Of a DNA stretch of 38,331 bases, positions 1,903-18,088 are shown piece by piece. The notes below the pieces were generated by a model. It had not been told where the DNA came from. It was given only the letters and a program-made list of their open reading frames with translations, and made no database searches. The DNA comes from Clostridia bacterium. GTDB lineage: Bacteria > Bacillota > Clostridia > Oscillospirales > CAG-272. The position numbers were made by a program, and so were the translations under genes. Position 1 is the first letter of the stretch. Each line of letters begins with the position of its first letter. The stretch covers positions 1 through 38,331 of the forward strand of contig JAGBIB010000140.1 in assembly GCA_017935195.1 (NCBI GenBank), given 5' to 3'.

Positions 1903-4900
1903 ATGCTCAAACTCCAACAAATCACAAAAACATACGACGTGGGCGGTGACCTGAAGGTGCAGGCTCTGCGCGGCATCGATCTGGAATTCCGCAAAAACGA
2001 ATTTGTTTCCATCCTCGGCCCCTCGGGGTGCGGAAAAACCACCCTTTTAAACATTATCGGCGGTCTTGACAGAAACACCACGGGTGAACTGTTCATCTCG
2101 GGTAAATCCACCGCACGTTACGGTGACAGAGAGTGGGATAACTACAGAAACCACTCCATCGGCTTCGTCTTCCAAAGCTACAACCTGATCCCCCATATGG
2201 ACGTACTGGCAAACGTAGAGCTTGCCCCCACCATTTCGGGCGTATCCAAGGCAGAGCGTCGCATCCGCTCCGTGGAGGCGTTAAAGAAGGTAGGTCTGGG
2301 TGATCAACTGCACAAAAAGCCCAATCAGCTCTCAGGCGGTCAGATGCAGAGAGTTGCCATCGCAAGAGCGCTGGTCAACGACCCCGAGATCCTTTTGGCA
2401 GACGAGCCCACAGGTGCACTTGACACCGTCACCAGTGTACAGATCATGGAGCTTTTGAAGGAGATCTCCAAGGATCGCCTGATCATCATGGTCACCCATA
2501 ACCCCGATCTGGCTGAAGAGTATTCTTCCCGTATCATCAAATTGAAGGACGGTCTGGTGGTGGACGATTCCGATCCCTATACCGCTCCCGTGCAAGAAGC
2601 AGAAGATGAGGTAAAGACCGAAAAAGCTGCTAAAAAGAAGAAAAAGAAAAAGGAAAAGATGGCGTCCATGTCCTTCTTCACCGCCCTTTCCCTTTCCACC
2701 AAGAACCTGCTGACAAAGAAAGCAAGAACGGCTTTGGTCAGCTTTGCGGGTTCCATCGGCATCATCGGCATCGCCCTCATCCTCTCCCTTTCAAACGGCG
2801 TGCAGATCTTCATCGATCAGGTGCAGGAGGACACCCTGTCCACCTATCCCCTGAGCATCAACAAATATTCCTCCGACACCGCCGCCATCTACGAGGCGAT
2901 GACCCAAACCAAAAACGAACAGCTTGAGTTTGAGGAGGATCGCATCTATCCCGATGATACTCTTGGCAGCATGATGAGCGCCATGACTCAGATCAAAACC
3001 AACAATATCGAAGATTTCATCGACTATTTTGAGGAGCACAAGTCTGAGTTGACGGGAAGTCTGAACGCATATAAGTACATTTACGATCTGACCATCCCCG
3101 TTTACAGCATCATTGATTCCGAAGGCAAGAAGGAGGCAATGCAGACCAATCCCACCTCTATCTTTGACTATATGGGCGACGAGATCAAGAATATGATGTC
3201 CTCTATTACCGCACTTGCGGGAGGCAACACCGGCATGAATTTCTATCAGGAGATGCTGGCGGGTGTTGACGGAGAGCTCATCAATCCCGTGGTCAAGGAG
3301 CAATACGATCTGGTGGGTGAGAATAGCCGTTGGCCGCAAAGTGCCAACGAGGTCGTGCTTGTTGTAGGCGAAAACAATCGCATCAGCACCATGGCACTCT
3401 ACGCCCTTGGCTTTATGGATCCCGCCAACATCAAGGAGGTCTTAGGATCTCTGATGGATCCCAACAAGGAATATGACAACCAGATCGAAGAGGGCTTCTA
3501 TTATGAGCTTGATGACTTCATCGGTCACACCTTCACCTACCTTCTGCCCACCGACTACTACTACACCGACAAAAACAGCGGTCACTACAAGGTTGGAGAC
3601 AAAACCTATCCCATCTGGAAGGATCACAGAGAGGACCAGCTCTTTGACGAGCTGCAGTTTATCGAGGAGCACGGTAAAGACTTGACCGTGGTGGGAATCA
3701 TCCGTCCCAATCCCGATGCCACCTCCACCTCCCTTTCTTCCCCCATCGCCTACACCTCTGCACTGACCAAGGAGATCATTGCCGATGTGGAAAAGACCGA
3801 TCTGGCTATTCAGCAAAAGGAAACGCCCGAATACGACGTATTCAGCGGCACCACCTTTGAGGAAATGCAGTTCACCAAGGAAAACATCGACGTCTTCCTT
3901 GATATGCTGGAGACCGAGCAAAAGCAGAGCCTGATCATGATGATCAATCAAATGATGCAGACCGCCTTCACCGAGGAGCGTCTGCCCGCCACCCTGCAGG
4001 CACTTGATGATCAGTCCTTTGCCGCCATCGTAAAGATGTACGCCCCCAACTATACCAAGACAAACCTGAGCGAATTCGTGGCAAGCCTTGATGAACAGAG
4101 TGCCATGGCACTGATCGGAATGCTTTCTCAGCAGACCGGTCAGCCCATCACCGCAGAAAGCCTGCCCGCCGTTCTTTCCATGATGGACGACGAGTCCTTT
4201 AACGGCATCGTTGCCATGTTTGATAAGTCTGCTCCCAAGTATTCCAAGGAGCAGATCGATGCCTTCCTTGAAGCCATCGGGGAGGAAGGCAGAGGGACAA
4301 TGCTGGAGCAGTTCAAAAAGAACATCGTGGTCACCGAGGAAAATCTGGCACAGACCCTTTCGGGTGTAACCGACGAGGAGTACGAGCAGCTCACCGCCTA
4401 CTATCTGCCCGAGGATCAGCGCACCACCTATGACACAAACCTGTCTAAGATCGGCTATCAGGACAAGAGCCGCATCAACTCCATTCAGCTCTTCGCAGTG
4501 GACTTTAACGGCAAGGATAAGATCAAGACGTTCGTGTCCAAGTATAACGATTACGCCATCGACCAAGCTCTGCTTGAAAATCCCGATCTGAAGGAAGAAG
4601 ACCACGATAACTACACGGTAGAGGTCAGCGACCTTGTGGGATCGCTGATGTCGGGCATCAACACCGTCATCAACGCCATCTCTTACGTGCTTATCGCCTT
4701 CGTTGCCATCTCGCTGGTGGTTTCCTCCATTATGATTGCCATCATCACCTATATCTCGGTGTTGGAGCGCATCAAGGAGATCGGTATCCTGCGGTCTTTG
4801 GGCGCTTCCAAGAGAAACGTCCGTCAGGTCTTTAATGCGGAAACCCTGATCGAAGGCTTCATCTCGGGTGCACTTGGTATCATCGTCACCCTGATCGCCT

Positions 4901-12923: not shown

Positions 12924-14057
12924 TCAAAAAAAGGGCAGGATCATTTCAAAACAGAGGCAAAGTCCGGGCAAAAGACTGTCTATCTCCACGTACTCCTCTC
13001 TGGTATGCGCCCCCTTGCCCTGACAGCATCCCACGCAAAGAGCGGGAATGCCCATGGAAAGGGGAATATTACAGTCGGTGGACCCGGGCACGAAGGACAC
13101 TTCCCTTCCGTAATGGGCAAGATACGCCGCTTCAGCCCGCTTTTCAAGGGCACCTTGCACCCCTTCGTCCACCTTCACCCCGCAGGGGCGTTCCCCGAGA
13201 GGCGTAACGGTAAGACGGGCGGAGGGCAGGTCAAACGCCTTCACCGTCCGCTCAAAAAAGTCCTTCATATAGGCAAGGCTCTCAGCGCTGTCCGAGCGGA
13301 ATTCGTAAAGCATCTCCGCATCCTCTGCAATGGTATTCACCGAGGTGCCGCCCGTCACCCTGCCCACGTTGTAGGTGGTTTTGCCTTCCTTTGGCAAGAC
13401 CACCTTGTCAAGAGCGCAGATCAGCTCTGCTAAATGGGTGATGGCGTTTTTGTTGCCAAAGGCGTTAAAGGAATGCCCGCCTGCCGTTTTCACCGACACC
13501 CGATAGCGCATAGAGCCCACCGCGCGGTTCACGGCATAGCCCTGATCCATACTGTCAAAGGTGACAAGCTCCCTTACCCTGCGTCCGTAACGTTCCATCA
13601 GGGCTCTACAACCCTTTAAGTTGCCAAGTCCCTCCTCGCCACTGTTGATGACCAGCAAAACCCCGCCGTCTGTGGGCGAAAGTCCCATTTGGGCAAGATA
13701 CTTCATTGCCATCAGCAAAGCGACAACGTTTGCGCTGTTGTCCCCAATGCCGGGACAAAAGATCTTCCCGTCCTCTTGCCGCAGGGGCAAGGGCTGATCA
13801 TCGGGAAAAACCACGTCGCTGTGCGCCATAAAAACACGGATGGGTCCTTCCCCCTCACAGTTTATGGGGAAGACCACGTTGAGCGCCTCGTCGATATATA
13901 CGCCCTGCGCCCCCTGCGCCTGCAGCCAATCCTTGCAAAAGGCGGCGCGCCCCTCTTCCCTTCCCGAAAAGGCGGGAAGTACGGCAAGGCGCAAAAGCAG
14001 GTCGAGTGCCTCCTGCCGATGCTCTTCTATATACGCTAAAACTCTTTGTTCAGGCAT
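12924..14057 (-). CDS. M20-family metallopeptidase (PepT/ArgE/DapE-like)
   Basis: The ORF is 377 aa with metal-ligand motifs MAHSDVV, GIGDNSANV and NSGEEGLGNLKG. It overlaps the MFS gene stop by 8 nt and has AAGGAG upstream. Confidence 0.85.
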   Translation of the reverse strand: MPEQRVLAYIEEHRQEALDLLLRLAVLPAFSGREEGRAAFCKDWLQAQGAQGVYIDEALNVVFPINCEGEGPIRVFMAHSDVVFPDDQPLPLRQEDGKIFCPGIGDNSANVVALLMAMKYLAQMGLSPTDGGVLLVINSGEEGLGNLKGCRALMERYGRRVRELVTFDSMDQGYAVNRAVGSMRYRVSVKTAGGHSFNAFGNKNAITHLAELICALDKVVLPKEGKTTYNVGRVTGGTSVNTIAEDAEMLYEFRSDSAESLAYMKDFFERTVKAFDLPSARLTVTPLGERPCGVKVDEGVQGALEKRAEAAYLAHYGREVSFVPGSTDCNIPLSMGIPALCVGCCQGKGAHTREEYVEIDSLLPGLCLCFEMILPFF

Positions 14058-15345
14058 CCTTTTTCTCCTTTCGCTTCACCGTTATAAGCAGCAGGAAGAG
14101 TGCCAATACTGCCGCCGCAACCAGGGCGGCGATAAAGATGCCCTCATTTGGCACGAAGGAGCTGGTGCCGTCGTTGTTTATAACGGTCTTTGCGTTTTTC
14201 AGCACCGTTTTACCGATAAAGGGACCGATCACGCCGGGTAAAAGCACCTGAGCAAAGATGCGTACCCCCTGAAGCATCCCCGATTTTCCCTCGGGTGTCA
14301 GCGCTCTGATGCGTGCGCCGAAGACCGCCATACCCGCAAGGTAGCCGCACATCATCAAAAGCGATCCGATAAAGACGAGTACCGTGCCTTTGAAGAAAAT
14401 GAGCAGAATATAGCCTGCCATCAGCCACAAAAGGCTGATCCAAGAAGAAAACACAAAGCCCTTCTTGTCATAGACCCTGCCCCACAAGGCGGTGACAACC
14501 GAGGCAAGGATGATGGCGGGCGCCATAATAAGCACGTAGTCCGTCATCTTCAGAGACACCTCGTAATAGAGGATCAGATAGGGCATAAAGATCTGAATGG
14601 AGATATTGAACAGCACGAAGGCGCAAAGGCTGAGGTAAAGCGAGGCGTTGCTCTTGACGGTGGAGGGCAGGAAGCCGTAAAAGACCGTTTTGAAGTACCC
14701 TTCCTTCACAGGCGCGATCTTGGGCTCCTTGATAAGGAAAAAGCCAAGCACACCCACCAAAAGCACCACGCCGCCGATGATGAAGAAGACAGCCGTCCAG
14801 CTTCCTTCTTTATCAAGATCAAAAGCCATAAAGCCGCCGAAGACCGCCAAAATGGCAACCAGAGGCATCATGGCGTTGATCCCCTCCGCCGCACCGCGGT
14901 TTGAAGGATCGGTGCTGTCAGTGAGCCACGCATTGAAGGCGGCATCGTTGGCAGTAGATCCGAAAAAGGTCATCAGACAGTCAAGAACGATGGTCAGCGA
15001 CACCCCCACCGTAGCGGCAGAAAGGGTCTGCGGGATCACAGCGGCAATGAGATCCTTTTTTAAAAGGGCAAAAGACAGGATGGAAACGCCCCAAAGGATG
15101 TAGCCCATACACATGAAGAGCTTTCTTTTGCCCACCTTGTCCGAGAGAGCGCCCATAAAAACGGTGGTGAGCGTTGCCGCCACCGCACTTGCGGCGACCA
15201 TGAGCGAAATGTCACCGGCAGAAGCAGAAAACATCTTATACATAAAGACGTTCAGATACATATTCTCCACCACCCAAGCGATCTGTCCGATCAGGCTGAA
15301 AATGGTGAGGGCAAGCCAAAACTTCGGGGAAAGTTTTCGTTTCAT
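14050..15345 (-). CDS. MFS transporter
   Basis: The ORF is 431 aa with about 12 hydrophobic segments and the MFS loop motif GALSDKVGKRK. A strong SD AGGAGGA lies 8 nt upstream. Confidence 0.85.
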   Translation of the reverse strand: MKRKLSPKFWLALTIFSLIGQIAWVVENMYLNVFMYKMFSASAGDISLMVAASAVAATLTTVFMGALSDKVGKRKLFMCMGYILWGVSILSFALLKKDLIAAVIPQTLSAATVGVSLTIVLDCLMTFFGSTANDAAFNAWLTDSTDPSNRGAAEGINAMMPLVAILAVFGGFMAFDLDKEGSWTAVFFIIGGVVLLVGVLGFFLIKEPKIAPVKEGYFKTVFYGFLPSTVKSNASLYLSLCAFVLFNISIQIFMPYLILYYEVSLKMTDYVLIMAPAIILASVVTALWGRVYDKKGFVFSSWISLLWLMAGYILLIFFKGTVLVFIGSLLMMCGYLAGMAVFGARIRALTPEGKSGMLQGVRIFAQVLLPGVIGPFIGKTVLKNAKTVINNDGTSSFVPNEGIFIAALVAAAVLALFLLLITVKRKEKKDA

Positions 15346-15386
15346 AAGGGCATTCCTCCTGTTGCAATTTGCTATACTGTAAATCT

Positions 15387-15415
15387 ATTATACCATAAAA
15401 GCAAAAAATTGTAAA
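15387..15415 (-). promoter_or_regulatory. Sigma-A promoter of the MFS/M20 operon
   Basis: On the reverse strand, TTTACA (15415-15410), a 17-nt spacer and TATAAT (15392-15387) with TGG immediately upstream (extended -10). It lies about 40 nt from the start codon. Confidence 0.65.
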
Positions 15416-15455
15416 GCGAAAATCCACAGGTGCGCCGACTTAACCACTCCCAAAG

Positions 15456-15495
15456 TTTTTAAACAAAAAGGAGCCTTCACGCCCAAAGCTCCTTT
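15456..15495 (-). terminator. Second, weaker terminator-like hairpin
   Basis: AAAGGAGC (15467-15474) pairs with GCTCCTTT (15488-15495) around a 13-nt loop. A T-rich run follows on the reverse strand. Confidence 0.4.
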
Positions 15496-15512
15496 AAACA
15501 ATGAAACGCAAA

Positions 15513-15544
15513 CAAAAAAGATCCAAGTCTTTCGACTTGGATCT
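15513..15544 (-). terminator. Rho-independent terminator immediately after the pseudo-tRNA 3' end
   Basis: AGATCCAAGTC, a GAAA loop and GACTTGGATCT form an 11-bp perfect stem on the reverse strand, followed by T6. Confidence 0.8.
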
Positions 15545-15694
15545 TGGCAGAGAGATGGGGATTCGCTCTCGGTCGCGCGTTGTCGCTTTCGCCCCTGCGA
15601 AAGCTCCGCTCCCTCGGTCAGGGGCGGCTCTGACTGCCACCGGCAGTCATTCACTCCCACCCCGTTCTCATCCCCATTATTCAAATCCGCCAAC
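15545..15694 (-). ncRNA. Unclassified 150-nt GC-rich structured element ending in a near-exact copy of the tRNA-Ser 3' end
   Basis: Nested helices, given in plus-strand coordinates:
- 15544-51 / 15686-93
- 15555-62 / 15670-77
- 15621-27 / 15657-63
- 15632-38 / 15642-48
- 15585-92 / 15597-604
Two of these helices need G-U pairs that exist only in the reverse-strand RNA. The 3' 21 nt match the tRNA-Ser 3' end at 20 of 21 positions. I recognised no known RNA family and saw no dedicated promoter. Confidence 0.4.
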
Positions 15695-15726
15695 AAAAAA
15701 GTGCACCCTATTGGGTGCACTTTTTT
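15695..15726 (-). terminator. Terminator hairpin after tRNA-Ser, the core of a 23-bp perfect inverted repeat
   Basis: The layout is A6, GTGCACCC, TATT, GGGTGCAC, T6. The repeat extends perfectly to 15686-15708 / 15713-15735, so its outer 7 bp include the tRNA acceptor 3' strand and CCA. Confidence 0.75.
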
Positions 15727-15728
15727 GT

Positions 15729-15820
15729 TGGCGGAGAGATGGGGATTCGAACCCCAGAACGGCTCACCACCGTTACGCGATTTCCAGTCGCGCGCCTTCG
15801 ACCAACTCAGCCATCTCTCC
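15729..15820 (-). tRNA. tRNA-Ser, anticodon GGA, CCA encoded
   Basis: I folded the reverse complement by hand. The acceptor is GGAGAGA/TCTCTCC with discriminator G and CCA. The anticodon loop is CUGGAAA, the variable arm is long (ACGG/CCGT), and the T arm is TGGGG-TTCGAAT-CCCCA. It is 92 nt. Confidence 0.95.
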
Positions 15821-15838
15821 GTACCGAGGTCGATGGAG

Positions 15839-15867
15839 AGTATACCACAAAAAAGCAGTTTTGTCAA
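15839..15867 (-). promoter_or_regulatory. Sigma-A promoter of tRNA-Ser
   Basis: On the reverse strand, TTGACA (15867-15862), a 17-nt spacer and TATACT (15844-15839) preceded by TGG. An A/T-rich UP-like tract lies upstream. The tRNA 5' end is about 19 nt downstream. Confidence 0.65.
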
Positions 15868-15942
15868 TACCTATTTTTTATTTTTTTAAATAAATTCAGC
15901 AGATAAAAAAGAAAGTCCCGCCGTTGATTTTGAGCAGTTACG

Positions 15943-15971
15943 TTGACAGCAAAAGACGTTCATGATATAAT
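15943..15971 (+). promoter_or_regulatory. Consensus sigma-A promoter of the low-GC orphan gene
   Basis: TTGACA (15943-15948), a 17-nt spacer and TATAAT (15966-15971) preceded by TGA (extended -10). Confidence 0.65.
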
Positions 15972-16957: not shown

Positions 16958-16992
16958 CCCGAGGCATCAAAGCGATGCTTCGGGCATTTTTT
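16958..16992. terminator. Terminator hairpin between convergent genes
   Basis: CCCGAGGCATC, an AAAGC loop and GATGCTTCGGG form an 11-bp stem with one G-U pair. CATTTTTT follows on the plus strand and a T5 run follows on the minus strand. Confidence 0.7.
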
Positions 16993-17974
16993 AAGATTTC
17001 CTTTTCTTTTTTAATTCCGCCAGCGGATTTTGATCCATTGCGTCTCTTACCTGGTCGTTATTCACGTGGGTGTAGATCTGAGTGGTGTTGAGCTGCTCGT
17101 GCCCCAGGATCTCCTTCAAGACTCTCACGTCCACCCCGCCCTCCTGATACATCAGGGTGGCGGCAGTGTGCCTTAATTTGTGGGTGGACAGGTGCTTGTA
17201 GCCCAGTCCCGCACGGTCCAGGTACTTGTATACCACGTGTTGTACCGTTCTTCTGCTCACCCTTTTGCCAAGACGGGAGATGAACAGGGCGTTTTTCTCT
17301 TTGATCTCCTGCCCGTTGCCCCGCACCTTCAGGTATTCCTCGATGGATGCTCTGCAGGCGTCGTTCAAGTAGACAACCCGCTCTTTACTCCCCTTTCCGA
17401 TGACCCTGAGTTTGGTGTGATCTCGGTCGATATCCGAAAGATTGATGCCCACCAGCTCTGCAAGACGCATCCCGCAATTGAGAAAGAGGGTGACCATACA
17501 GTAATCTCGCTCCTTGAAGAGCGACTCCTCGTCGTCCTCCACCGCCTCCAAAAGCTCCACGCTCTCCTCAAGGGAAAGGTGCTTTGGCAGCCGCTTATCG
17601 ATCTTCGGGGAGCTGATGGCGGCGGCAGGGTTGATCTCCAGATCGCCCCGCACGTTCACCAGATATTTGAAAAAGGATTTGATGGCAGAAAGCTTTCTTG
17701 CTCTGGCAGATGCCCGATTGTTCCGCTCCTCGCTGACGTACCTCAAAAAGCGGAAAATGTCCTCGCTTTTGATCCGTTCAATCTCCGAAAGCGAGAAATC
17801 GGCGATCGCCTCTGCGGCAAGCTCCTCCTCTGTGGGTACCCTCGTTTTGGCGCTTGCCCGCAGATACTGAAAAAACATCGTCAGATCGGTCTTATACTGC
17901 TCGATGGTCAGGGGGGAGCGGTTCAAATGGCTTAAATAGTTGCAAAAGTGGTTGAGATGGACAGGAAGATCCAT
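16991..17974 (-). CDS. Tyrosine site-specific recombinase, XerC/XerD-like
   Basis: This is the track ORF 16991..18013. I prefer the start at 17974 (MDLPVHL) because AAAGGAGA lies 5 nt upstream. It has an N-terminal SAM-like domain. Catalytic residues are R in GMRLAEL, K in GKGSKER, HKLRHTAAT, LGHEQL and IYTHV. Confidence 0.9.
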   Translation of the reverse strand: MDLPVHLNHFCNYLSHLNRSPLTIEQYKTDLTMFFQYLRASAKTRVPTEEELAAEAIADFSLSEIERIKSEDIFRFLRYVSEERNNRASARARKLSAIKSFFKYLVNVRGDLEINPAAAISSPKIDKRLPKHLSLEESVELLEAVEDDEESLFKERDYCMVTLFLNCGMRLAELVGINLSDIDRDHTKLRVIGKGSKERVVYLNDACRASIEEYLKVRGNGQEIKEKNALFISRLGKRVSRRTVQHVVYKYLDRAGLGYKHLSTHKLRHTAATLMYQEGGVDVRVLKEILGHEQLNTTQIYTHVNNDQVRDAMDQNPLAELKKKRKS

Positions 17975-18088
17975 TGTTTCTCCTTTCTTGAGATCAAGCG
18001 CAAAAAAGCGCATTGAAAAAGTGTATTTTTAGAAAAGAATTCATAAAATACTCTAAGTTTTAACACAATTATACCTTATAATGTTAAG

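Follow-up and report, generated by a model that had tools for sequence, protein, structure and literature searches.

Among the closest described counterparts of the element considered here are cis-mobilizable elements (CIMEs) and their tandem accretion at tRNA 3′ ends, of the type known from the integrative and conjugative elements (ICEs) ICESt1 and ICESt3 (Pavlovic 2004, Bellanger 2011; reviewed in PMC5704250). Genomic islands are routinely delimited by the footprint of duplicated tRNA 3′ ends. In the present case, this footprint belongs to a conserved unit of 150-350 bp that has a folded core. The unit lies behind the gene for tRNA-Ser(GGA) in a 38,331-nt contig of a Clostridia bacterium (JAGBIB010000140.1; this whole stretch is referred to as the window), and it is a member of a family that occurs widely among uncultured Clostridia of the gut and rumen and is missing from Rfam. 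The interpretation that we favor, although we regard it as evenly balanced between right and wrong, is that positions 15545-15728 are one unit of a miniature, non-autonomous integrative family that inserts at tRNA 3′ ends in gut Clostridia, and whose core acts as folded DNA and is moved in trans. Here and below, L numbers designate the loci that were compared. The parts of the locus are:

15729..15820, minus strand: tRNA-Ser(GGA) gene (ARAGORN and Rfam)
15729-15749, minus strand: duplicated block, the last ~21 nt of the tRNA, from the T-loop to CCA
15686..15735, minus strand: T1, first part of the repeated unit, a 23-bp perfect palindrome with a terminator (repeat search and reading)
15664..15694, minus strand: 5′ arm, a decayed inverted copy of the tRNA 3′ end, GTTGGCGGA-TTTGAATA-ATGGGGAT-GAGAAC
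15619..15665, minus strand: conserved family core, consisting of helix P1, unpaired (G)AGUGAAU, hairpin P2 and unpaired AGAG
within 15619..15665, minus strand: P1, GGGGUGG/CCGCCCC, and P2, GACUGCC-GGU-GGCAGUC
15566..15620, minus strand: junction UGACCGAG, expanded P3 hairpin and second GACCGAG joiner
15585-15604, minus strand: P3 hairpin GCUUUCGC-AGGG-GCGAAAGC, which holds the GCGAAAGC and C-GCA-G mini-hairpin motifs
15545..15565, minus strand: psi, a pseudo tRNA 3′ end, CGAATCCCCATCTCTCTGCCA, 20/21 identical to the tRNA end and forming the 3′ strand of helix P0
15518..15545, minus strand: T2, an intrinsic-terminator-like hairpin and U-run directly past psi (terminator scan)

The tRNA gene is intact and scores 55 bits against Rfam. 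The original prediction, which came from a reading of this DNA, was that its 3′ end recurs at 15545-15565. This is true for 20 of the 21 nucleotides, and matches of this quality (last 20-21 nt, one mismatch) were expected 0 times in shuffled sequences. Our repeat search also recovered the proposed 23-bp perfect inverted repeat (15686-15708 / 15713-15735) over the acceptor 3′ strand and CCA; this palindrome spans the UCCGCCA end of the tRNA on one side and UGGCGGA on the other. Each of the two tRNA ends is followed by a terminator, as had been proposed. The scanner reported T2 (15545-15518) and did not list T1, which was seen by reading of the sequence and consists of GUGCACCC-AAUA-GGGUGCAC plus six U residues, with an 8-bp GC-rich stem. 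T1 is duplicated along with the element in L001 and L168, and T2 is kept in L009 and L168. Psi is probably the displaced original end of the tRNA-Ser gene, and T2 is probably the original terminator of that gene. The hairpin sequence of T2 is also present in two unrelated metagenome contigs (L161 and L162), inside a local repeat in the case of L162.

The GC content of the element stretch (15694-15545) is 61.7%, as compared with 37-38% in the flanking intergenic DNA. The claim that the 150 nt between the two copies are strongly folded was borne out: the minus strand has a minimum free energy of -70.5 kcal/mol (z = -4.56; 0 of 200 shuffles were as stable) and thus exceeds the plus strand (-58.4 kcal/mol, z = -3.4). 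Among the helices that had been drawn, AUGGGGAU/AUCCCCAU (P0, with ATGGGGAT at 15670-15677 as its 5′ strand), P1 and P2 show the compensatory substitutions in relatives that the prediction called for. The helix GCUUUCGC/GCGAAAGC corresponds to P3, a family hairpin of variable length, and UUGGCGGA/UCUGCCAA is limited to the lineage of the window plus a few others. The idea of two mutually exclusive folds also stands, because the 5′ arm matches the copy of the tRNA end on either side and is able to pair with the real end or with psi.

The element does not belong to a known RNA family, as the prediction had held. Rfam 15 gave no family at the gathering threshold in the window except tRNA, a scan of 15350-15950 by E-value returned chance hairpin matches alone, and nothing relevant was found by Rfam in 13 viral and 5 genome loci with family members. 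ARAGORN detected no tRNA or tmRNA besides tRNA-Ser at 15729-15820; the element holds only the last ~21 nt of the gene and the inverted copy. No open reading frame (ORF) with a family match was found inside the element. A promoter of the element's own was not found in the promoter scan of the window region, and T1 stands upstream. The element had been judged not to be the leader of the downstream gene, which encodes a major facilitator superfamily (MFS) transporter, and we concur, given the promoter-like site of that gene at 15415-15387.

A family of folded cores linked to tRNA genes

Copies of the core were gathered with the pattern AGTGAATGAC-N(1-5)-CCGGTGG-N(1-5)-GTCAGAG, which corresponds to 30 nt of the window (15655-15628, minus strand). 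The pattern was reached through a chance match, L020, in exact scans of viral contigs with the P3 or P2 hairpin; aside from L020, scans of these contigs with either hairpin alone gave nothing or chance matches. The core motif was found in 12 viral contigs, and a collection of species-representative genomes yielded at least 119 further stretches with it. The hosts are nearly all metagenome-assembled genomes (MAGs) of gut or rumen Clostridia, i.e., Oscillospiraceae, Acutalibacteraceae, Eubacteriales and Lachnospiraceae, and the few other host names among core-bearing contigs may be binning noise. Many core copies are located at contig ends, as is expected of multi-copy repeats, and one MAG, UMGS975, has several core-bearing contigs (L064, L083, L103). 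A covariance model of the core, R1, detects one copy in the 38-kb window (53.8 bits, E = 2.4e-12) and few additional copies in 100 family loci. The original prediction had proposed that many dispersed copies would indicate a repeat or a miniature inverted-repeat transposable element (MITE); such dispersal holds across genomes and does not hold inside the window.

The finding is real and beyond chance. P1 flanks the motif, while P2 is a GAC-NNN-CC / GG-NNN-GUC hairpin. In these two helices, 91% of the cells in the alignment are paired, double-sided changes number 180 cells versus 46 in shuffles, and the covariation measure is 0.409; shuffles reach 0.106, and controls with slid partners do not exceed 0.09. 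For the inner three base pairs of P2 alone, more than 20 distinct Watson-Crick combinations occur. Tandem G-A/A-G pairs are seen in P1 in a subset of copies. On the tRNA-sense strand, G-U (G-T) pairs outnumber A-C by about 11:1 in P1 and P2, so the minus-strand bias noted in the original prediction extends to the whole family; this argument identifies which strand folds and says nothing on RNA versus DNA. The stem of P3 is variable, and its C-GCA-G loop (CGCAG) is kept in 103 of 130 copies. This loop and the GCGNAGC or GCGNNAGC loops that are also present are of the GNA type, and not GNRA or UNCG. Both kinds are classic hyperstable DNA mini-hairpins (PMC13037366, PMC3201870).

Three layouts can be distinguished. 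Type A, which is that of the window, accounts for about 43 of the 142 copies. Type B, with about 85 of the 142 copies (~60%), is located away from tRNAs, begins G-TAGCGAAGC-G and is bracketed by CCCCU...AGGGG. Many type-B copies begin GTAGCG (often GTAG-CGAAGC), phage-like contigs are included, and their orientation shows no bias relative to flanking ORFs. Type C occurs behind tRNA-Met, with the core at another place (the variable-loop region) of the tRNA-Met 3′ copy. A combination of types is seen in L138: behind tRNA-Thr, the P2 loop of a type-A unit houses a nested type-B unit of 81 nt (GGGTAGCGAAGCG...GCAGCGAGAC), which replaces ~4 nt of this loop (1305-1480, oriented coordinates).

The order of parts in type A is a terminator, a spacer of 5-20 nt, the 5′ arm, P1-core-P1′, the junction UGACCGAG, P3 and a tRNA 3′ end. 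For 30 copies, a tRNA gene is found on the same strand 36-631 nt upstream, and the tail equals the last 16 nt of this tRNA exactly in 16 of the 30 and with at most one mismatch in 19. Roughly one copy in three stands immediately past a tRNA gene, and at least 10 amino-acid specificities are represented: Glu, Pro, Leu, Met, Ser (with four anticodons), Asp, Tyr, Trp, Thr and Val. The copied block in the units starts in the T-loop and ends at CCA. Its first 8-13 nt, reverse-complemented, make up the 5′ arm, which is thus specific to the tRNA in each unit. In L149, GACAGGAGTTGA faces TCAACTCCTGTC, and the T-loop is non-palindromic; therefore, the 5′ arm is a true inverted copy and does not directly repeat the T-stem of the tRNA itself. 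When 23 related units were analyzed with RNAalifold, P0 was recovered with compensatory changes, together with P1 and P2. In the window and in L131, L042, L093 and L111, the decayed inverted copy covers the whole tRNA end, and tRNA end, terminator and arm make up one long palindrome. We considered whether conserved synteny might underlie the linkage between tRNAs and units, and rejected this possibility: the genes that flank the window's unit are absent from other loci having tRNA-Ser(GGA) and a unit, so the unit travels with the tRNA and not with the neighborhood.

Whole units, terminator included, are arranged in tandem in L021, L081, L135, L106, L145 and L068, and T1-like terminators are homologous across genomes (e.g., L042, L122 and L037). 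In L066, L085 and L088, the unit is situated between two tRNA genes and there is no terminator. The tRNA-Leu gene of L093 has no encoded CCA, and the adjacent duplicated tRNA end lacks CCA as well; the tail is therefore derived from DNA and not from mature tRNA. For this reason, we also discarded an origin as a retro-element or as a tRNA-primed tail. The L093 array alternates two kinds of unit, one with the AGTGAATGAC core and one devoid of it, in which TAGCGAGCCGAAGGCGAG and a more complete T-arm copy are present. The palindrome of the tRNA terminator in L093 also takes in the tRNA end (CCGCA/TGCGG).

In L111 (3867-2330, minus strand), a unit lies beside a gene for a lambda-type integrase (arm-binding, SAM_3 and catalytic domains). 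After this gene comes a 45-nt tRNA-Met copy that starts in the anticodon loop and reaches CCA; next are a terminator, the anticodon arm in inverted form and the core, and the series ends with a second, shorter tRNA-Met 3′ copy past the core. Direct and inverted repeats, TTCACTATT / AGTGAAGAG, occur in the flanks of L106 (3377-3640, 3730-3990), L113, L080 and L143, where they stand past the copied tRNA end and terminator. These repeats have TAGTGAA in common with the invariant unpaired core motif (U)AGUGAAU. Judging from the sequences, TAGTGAA may be a shared word that is bound by a protein, in the manner of an arm-type site of an integrase.

Searches for a partner gene were made around the 142 copies. 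Clustering of the 1271 ORFs within 3 kb of a copy gave no protein family that recurs in more than 6 loci, and the most frequent ones have housekeeping roles (MATE efflux, response regulator, ABC transporter); on this basis, an autonomous partner gene in cis was rejected. A tyrosine recombinase was found within 3 kb of only 2 of the 142 copies in a single-query phmmer search, which has limited sensitivity. No tnpB-like ORF recurs within the same distance. No conserved promoter was found in the spacers upstream of the type-A units that were compared. BLASTN of the element and the type-B consensus against cultured phages and PLSDB plasmids gave no meaningful match, and no Ser-type units were found in viral contigs. 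Hammerhead-like CUGAUGAG motifs near some type-B copies were dismissed after they received no support from Rfam. We found no published description of such elements in the searchable literature, which is no proof of novelty.

If this family is as we describe it, it would account for odd "pseudo-tRNA ends", repeats behind tRNAs and contig breaks in MAGs from the gut. A covariance model of the core would allow such units to be masked or flagged in annotation.

The locus in sister strains

The comparison of strains involves these additional features of the window:

15839..15867, minus strand: sigma-70-like promoter of tRNA-Ser (TTGACA, 17 nt, TATACT, TG extension; promoter scan)
15467..15495, minus strand: T3, a second terminator-like hairpin, before the MFS promoter (terminator scan)
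15387..15415, minus strand: promoter-like site of the MFS transporter gene, outside the element and marking its downstream limit
14050-15345, minus strand: MFS transporter gene
16991-18013, minus strand: gene for an XerC/D-like tyrosine recombinase (SAM_1 and Phage_integrase domains)

T2 and T3 are consecutive and lie between psi and the MFS promoter. The recombinase gene is located 1.2 kb past the 5′ side of tRNA-Ser and is co-directional with it; DUF2809 and ORF161 (on the opposite strand) separate the two.

The locus varies between strains that are 94-99.9% identical there. The window and L009, whose MFS protein is 89% identical, have a single unit in the order tRNA-[T1-E-psi]-T2, where E is the element. 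The two units are ~95% identical, and several of the substitutions in L009 are transitions in helix positions, with pairing kept via G-U. L001 (99.9% identity with the window) carries two copies of the 187-bp unit, one on each side of an 836-bp module X (2781-3616). In L168 (MFS protein 97% identical), the order is tRNA, module Z (ORF118), X, unit, module Y (ORF124), unit, T2 and MFS, and two terminators lie between the element and the upstream ORF. In a further group (L003-L008 and L167; MFS protein 96% identical), neither the tRNA nor the units are found at the locus. This group has ~93-94% DNA identity over the shared region, synteny ends at the MFS start (window ~15346), and tRNA-Ser, ORF161, DUF2809 and the integrase are missing. 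Upstream of MFS, these strains instead have a 190-195-aa ORF, an extracytoplasmic function (ECF) sigma factor, an RsgI-like anti-sigma factor and YceG.

In module X, a terminator precedes five AATCGTTRAA repeats, a promoter and an ORF of 170 aa (ORF170), which has a weak match to SUKH/SMI1_KNR4 (E = 0.004). ORF124 has a lipoprotein-like signal, and ORF118 has no match. The three modules Z, X and Y (L168, 448-3110) share a plan: each opens with a terminator directly past a ...CA end, continues with an array of short repeats interleaved with GC mini-hairpins (5x AATCGTTRAA; AATGATG/CATCATT; TGATGATATACA), and has a sigma-70-like promoter and one small ORF past the array. Homologues of ORF170 are frequent elsewhere without the core, and the modules are therefore independent passengers. 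More than 120 homologues were found, mostly on contigs of ~1 kb, and one cluster has 286 member sequences. Their contexts are unrelated and variable (near WYL, HTH, TnpV and HNH genes; L151, L152-L160), and ORF170 looks like a small mobile or hotspot gene. A 1025-bp contig (L151) with an ORF170 homologue led us to consider a circular element of ~1 kb, given that module X plus one unit would be expected to measure 1023 bp. However, this candidate was rejected, as the contig has different flanks and no core, and ORF170 homologues occur in unrelated contexts.

Possible origins of the unit

Site-specific integration at tRNA genes must rebuild the tRNA, and its signature is a copied block that starts in the T-loop and stops exactly at CCA. 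The most economical reading of such a copy is therefore entry by recombination within that block. We infer that the unit arose by recombination, that it folds at the level of DNA and that it is mobilized in trans. The anatomy on which this builds, like the family membership, the tRNA linkage, the covariation and the strain polymorphism, is shown by the sequences. The unit comprises T1 past the CCA of the tRNA, an inverted arm from the T-loop and T-stem, a core of ~85-110 nt and a direct copy of the tRNA 3′ end; the core in turn comprises P1, unpaired AGUGAAU, P2 with its CC-GGU-GG tip, the junction UGACCGAG and P3 with the C-GCA-G loop. T1, arm and core would have entered by site-specific recombination within the block from T-loop to CCA. 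The end of tRNA-Ser would now be supplied by the element, with T1 next to it, and the original end (psi) and T2 would have been displaced downstream. The inverted arm and psi would represent a split core site of a recombinase, joined as helix P0. The core would be folded out of one DNA strand, namely the tRNA-sense strand, and would probably be a handle for a recombinase that is supplied in trans. Every unit would bring a new copy of the attachment sequence, and this would explain both the tandem stacking of units and the build-up of other tRNA-targeting modules between them. The terminators, the lack of a promoter, the unbiased orientation of type B, the mini-hairpin loops and the strand-specific excess of G-T hint that it is DNA rather than RNA that folds.

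It is important to emphasize that several observations weigh against this integrative interpretation. Copies were gathered by an exact core pattern, and the invariance of the core is thus partly by construction. The majority layout, type B, is away from tRNAs, and the nesting in L138 looks like transposition into hairpin loops and not like the action of an integrase. The units of L066, L085 and L088 must be transcribed with their tRNA operons, and invariant unpaired stretches, tandem G-A pairs and the G-U excess suit RNA equally well. The arms of tyrosine-recombinase core sites are normally 6-8 bp apart, unlike those of the unit, which are ~90 nt apart. No recombinase tied to the family was found, and the XerC/D-like integrase of the window (16991-18013) is on the 5′ side of the tRNA. 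Finally, neither an excised circle nor the empty site that the original prediction proposed to look for, in which tRNA-Ser is directly followed by its terminator, was found in a single metagenome scan, where T2 occurred only in unrelated contexts.

Some of these observations are better explained if the unit was assembled in two steps: an island at the tRNA left an attR core palindrome, and a miniature transposable element that targets hairpin loops (a core of ~81-110 nt) then hit the center of this palindrome. The core would in that case be unrelated to integration at tRNAs. The 81-nt unit within the P2 loop in L138 is what such an element would produce, as are the type-B copies off tRNAs between CCCCU...AGGGG inverted sequences, often at contig ends, and the different site of the core in type C. 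In addition, type A reads ..TTCGAA | core | CGAATCC.., which resembles insertion at the center of a palindrome with a duplication of 4 nt. However, the same event would be needed independently at more than 40 attachment sites of at least 10 types of tRNA, the remaining "island" would always be a mere terminator and a 5-20-nt spacer, and whole units with their terminator are in tandem and homologous across genomes. Moreover, the tRNA 3′ copy of the integrase element in L111 is intact, with the unit as a separate module after it, and there is no recurring transposase nearby. We consider this history unlikely, but it is the alternative that we take most seriously. A simpler possibility is that the element is the inert scar of one deleted island that targeted tRNA-Ser, its structure being a by-product of tRNA-derived repeats. 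Direct repeats of a tRNA 3′ end around a gene-less segment are known from CIMEs (PMC5704250), and the window has a single copy. Yet the core is near-invariant across many families of Clostridia while its helices covary, and units are amplified in tandem in many genomes and differ in number between near-identical strains; a wholly inert scar is thus very improbable. The att-site alternative of the original prediction was correct as to the character of the duplicated tRNA end, and incorrect in that the element is not a one-off scar and is instead a unit of a large family.

The element might also be a functional non-coding RNA on the tRNA strand, made by read-through of the terminator or as part of a tRNA operon transcript and ending in a tRNA-like 3′ end. 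It could, for instance, be a decoy for enzymes whose substrates are tRNA 3′ ends, or regulate them, or guide recombination. Such an RNA would be expected to covary strongly and to keep its unpaired nucleotides invariant, as the element does, the G-U pairs on the tRNA-sense strand are far above A-C, the minus strand folds better than the plus strand, and the 5′ arm has two alternative pairings; co-transcription of the terminator-free units between tRNA genes would provide for its expression. On the other hand, the element of the window stands behind a strong terminator without a promoter, two terminators are upstream of it in L168, and the spacers of other units have no conserved promoter. The orientation of type B is random relative to genes, the GNA-type loops are typical of DNA mini-hairpins, the tail follows the gene and not the mature tRNA where CCA is not encoded, and there is no match in Rfam. 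An RNA derived from the tRNA trailer was among the alternatives of the original prediction and fared worst of them, and we regard a functional RNA as distinctly improbable.

Within the integrative interpretation, we also entertain a more specific hypothesis, which we consider doubtful: the core is the handle for the recombinase in trans, and the two arms, one an inverted and the other a direct copy of the target, are a programmable address. An exchange of arms may then retarget the unit to the T-arm of a new tRNA or to another hairpin, as in type B or the nested copy of L138. This would account for the presence of one family behind at least 10 different tRNA genes. By analogy, the address could work as a folded single-strand attachment site, as in attC or CTX attP, or else through a guide-like RNA made from the unit. 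With every unit, a new landing pad would be planted, and strain-variable arrays of small modules, with their promoter and ORF, would be seeded behind tRNAs. Quite apart from this hypothesis, the unit appears to multiply attachment sites and so to create hotspots for small accessory genes; among site-specific integrative elements, it may represent the smallest kind. If it is true that arms and core program the choice of target, the family would offer a new way to direct recombination to chosen sequences.

Comparison with known systems

Structured repeats with outer inverted repeats that pair are also found in integron attC sites and in the rAID-1 arrays of Bacteroidales (bioRxiv 10.1101/471110). 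As in those systems, the unit is at the boundaries of modules in strain-variable arrays of single ORFs (L168 and L001), one ORF being weakly SUKH-like and thus immunity-like; one strand is apparently the folded form; and a gene for an Xer-like recombinase is ~1.2 kb away in the window. However, a recombinase gene like this one is absent from nearly all other family loci. The unit has no RYYYAAC/GTTRRRY boxes, its ends being GTTGGCGGA... and ...TCTGCCAA (direct reading) in the window and tRNA-specific arms elsewhere. Furthermore, attC conserves shape and not sequence, whereas the inner sequence of the unit is conserved. Each of the modules X, Y and Z is equipped with a promoter and a terminator, unlike the promoterless cassettes of integrons, the anchor is a tRNA and not attI, cargo ORFs are absent from most family arrays, and there is no linked integrase of the integron type.

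With MITEs, repetitive extragenic palindromes (REPs) and bacterial interspersed mosaic elements (BIMEs), the unit shares its small size, the absence of coding potential, and multiple copies across genomes that often break assemblies. A MITE-like insertion with tRNA-derived terminal inverted repeats was one of the alternatives originally proposed, and this was half right: the ends are indeed inverted repeats derived from the tRNA (P0 arms of 8-13 bp), and the sequence that they enclose holds no ORF with a family match. The hairpin-loop insertion of L138 recalls palindrome-inserting elements of the IS110/IS1111 type and MITEs, and the GTAG-CGAAGC with which type B often starts recalls repeats of the REP/BIME type. 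However, the direct repeat of ~20 nt ends exactly at CCA, which is the mark of site-specific recombination that restores the tRNA, and is not typical of the duplication made by a staggered cut. The inverted arms are derived from the target and differ for each tRNA, and neither a transposase, a RAYT protein nor a DEDD recombinase is linked. As regards the palindrome-associated transposable elements (PATEs) of IS200/IS605 and the omega-RNA of TnpB, the 3′ tail of the unit equals the flanking target, and there is no Rfam match.

Strand-specific structured DNA of ~150 nt with conserved loops and covarying stems is also known from folded single-strand attachment sites of Xer-exploiting elements, such as attP(+) of CTX phage, and from the single-strand origin ssoA of rolling-circle replicons. 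The TAGCGA motif of type B presumably resembles the CS-6 element of ssoA. The unit differs from both in having no dif-like site and no replication protein or relaxase in cis, and we would treat this resemblance as a lead only.

The likeness to CIMEs is clear. The unit is a gene-less segment between direct repeats of a tRNA 3′ end (20/21) that leaves the tRNA intact, and elements stack at the repeated attachment site (L001, L168, L093, L111). No larger relative, whether an ICE, an integrative and mobilizable element (IME) or a prophage, was found at the site of the window, where sister strains carry small modules of a promoter and an ORF. CIMEs are islands in decay that measure kilobases and whose content is specific to a lineage, while the unit measures ~150-350 bp and its core is conserved across many genera; the unit is also found behind at least 10 tRNAs and multiplies in tandem with no ICE or IME alongside it in cis. 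The feature is best filed with miniature integrative or attachment-site elements that have a conserved folded core, and it appears to behave like a very small CIME.

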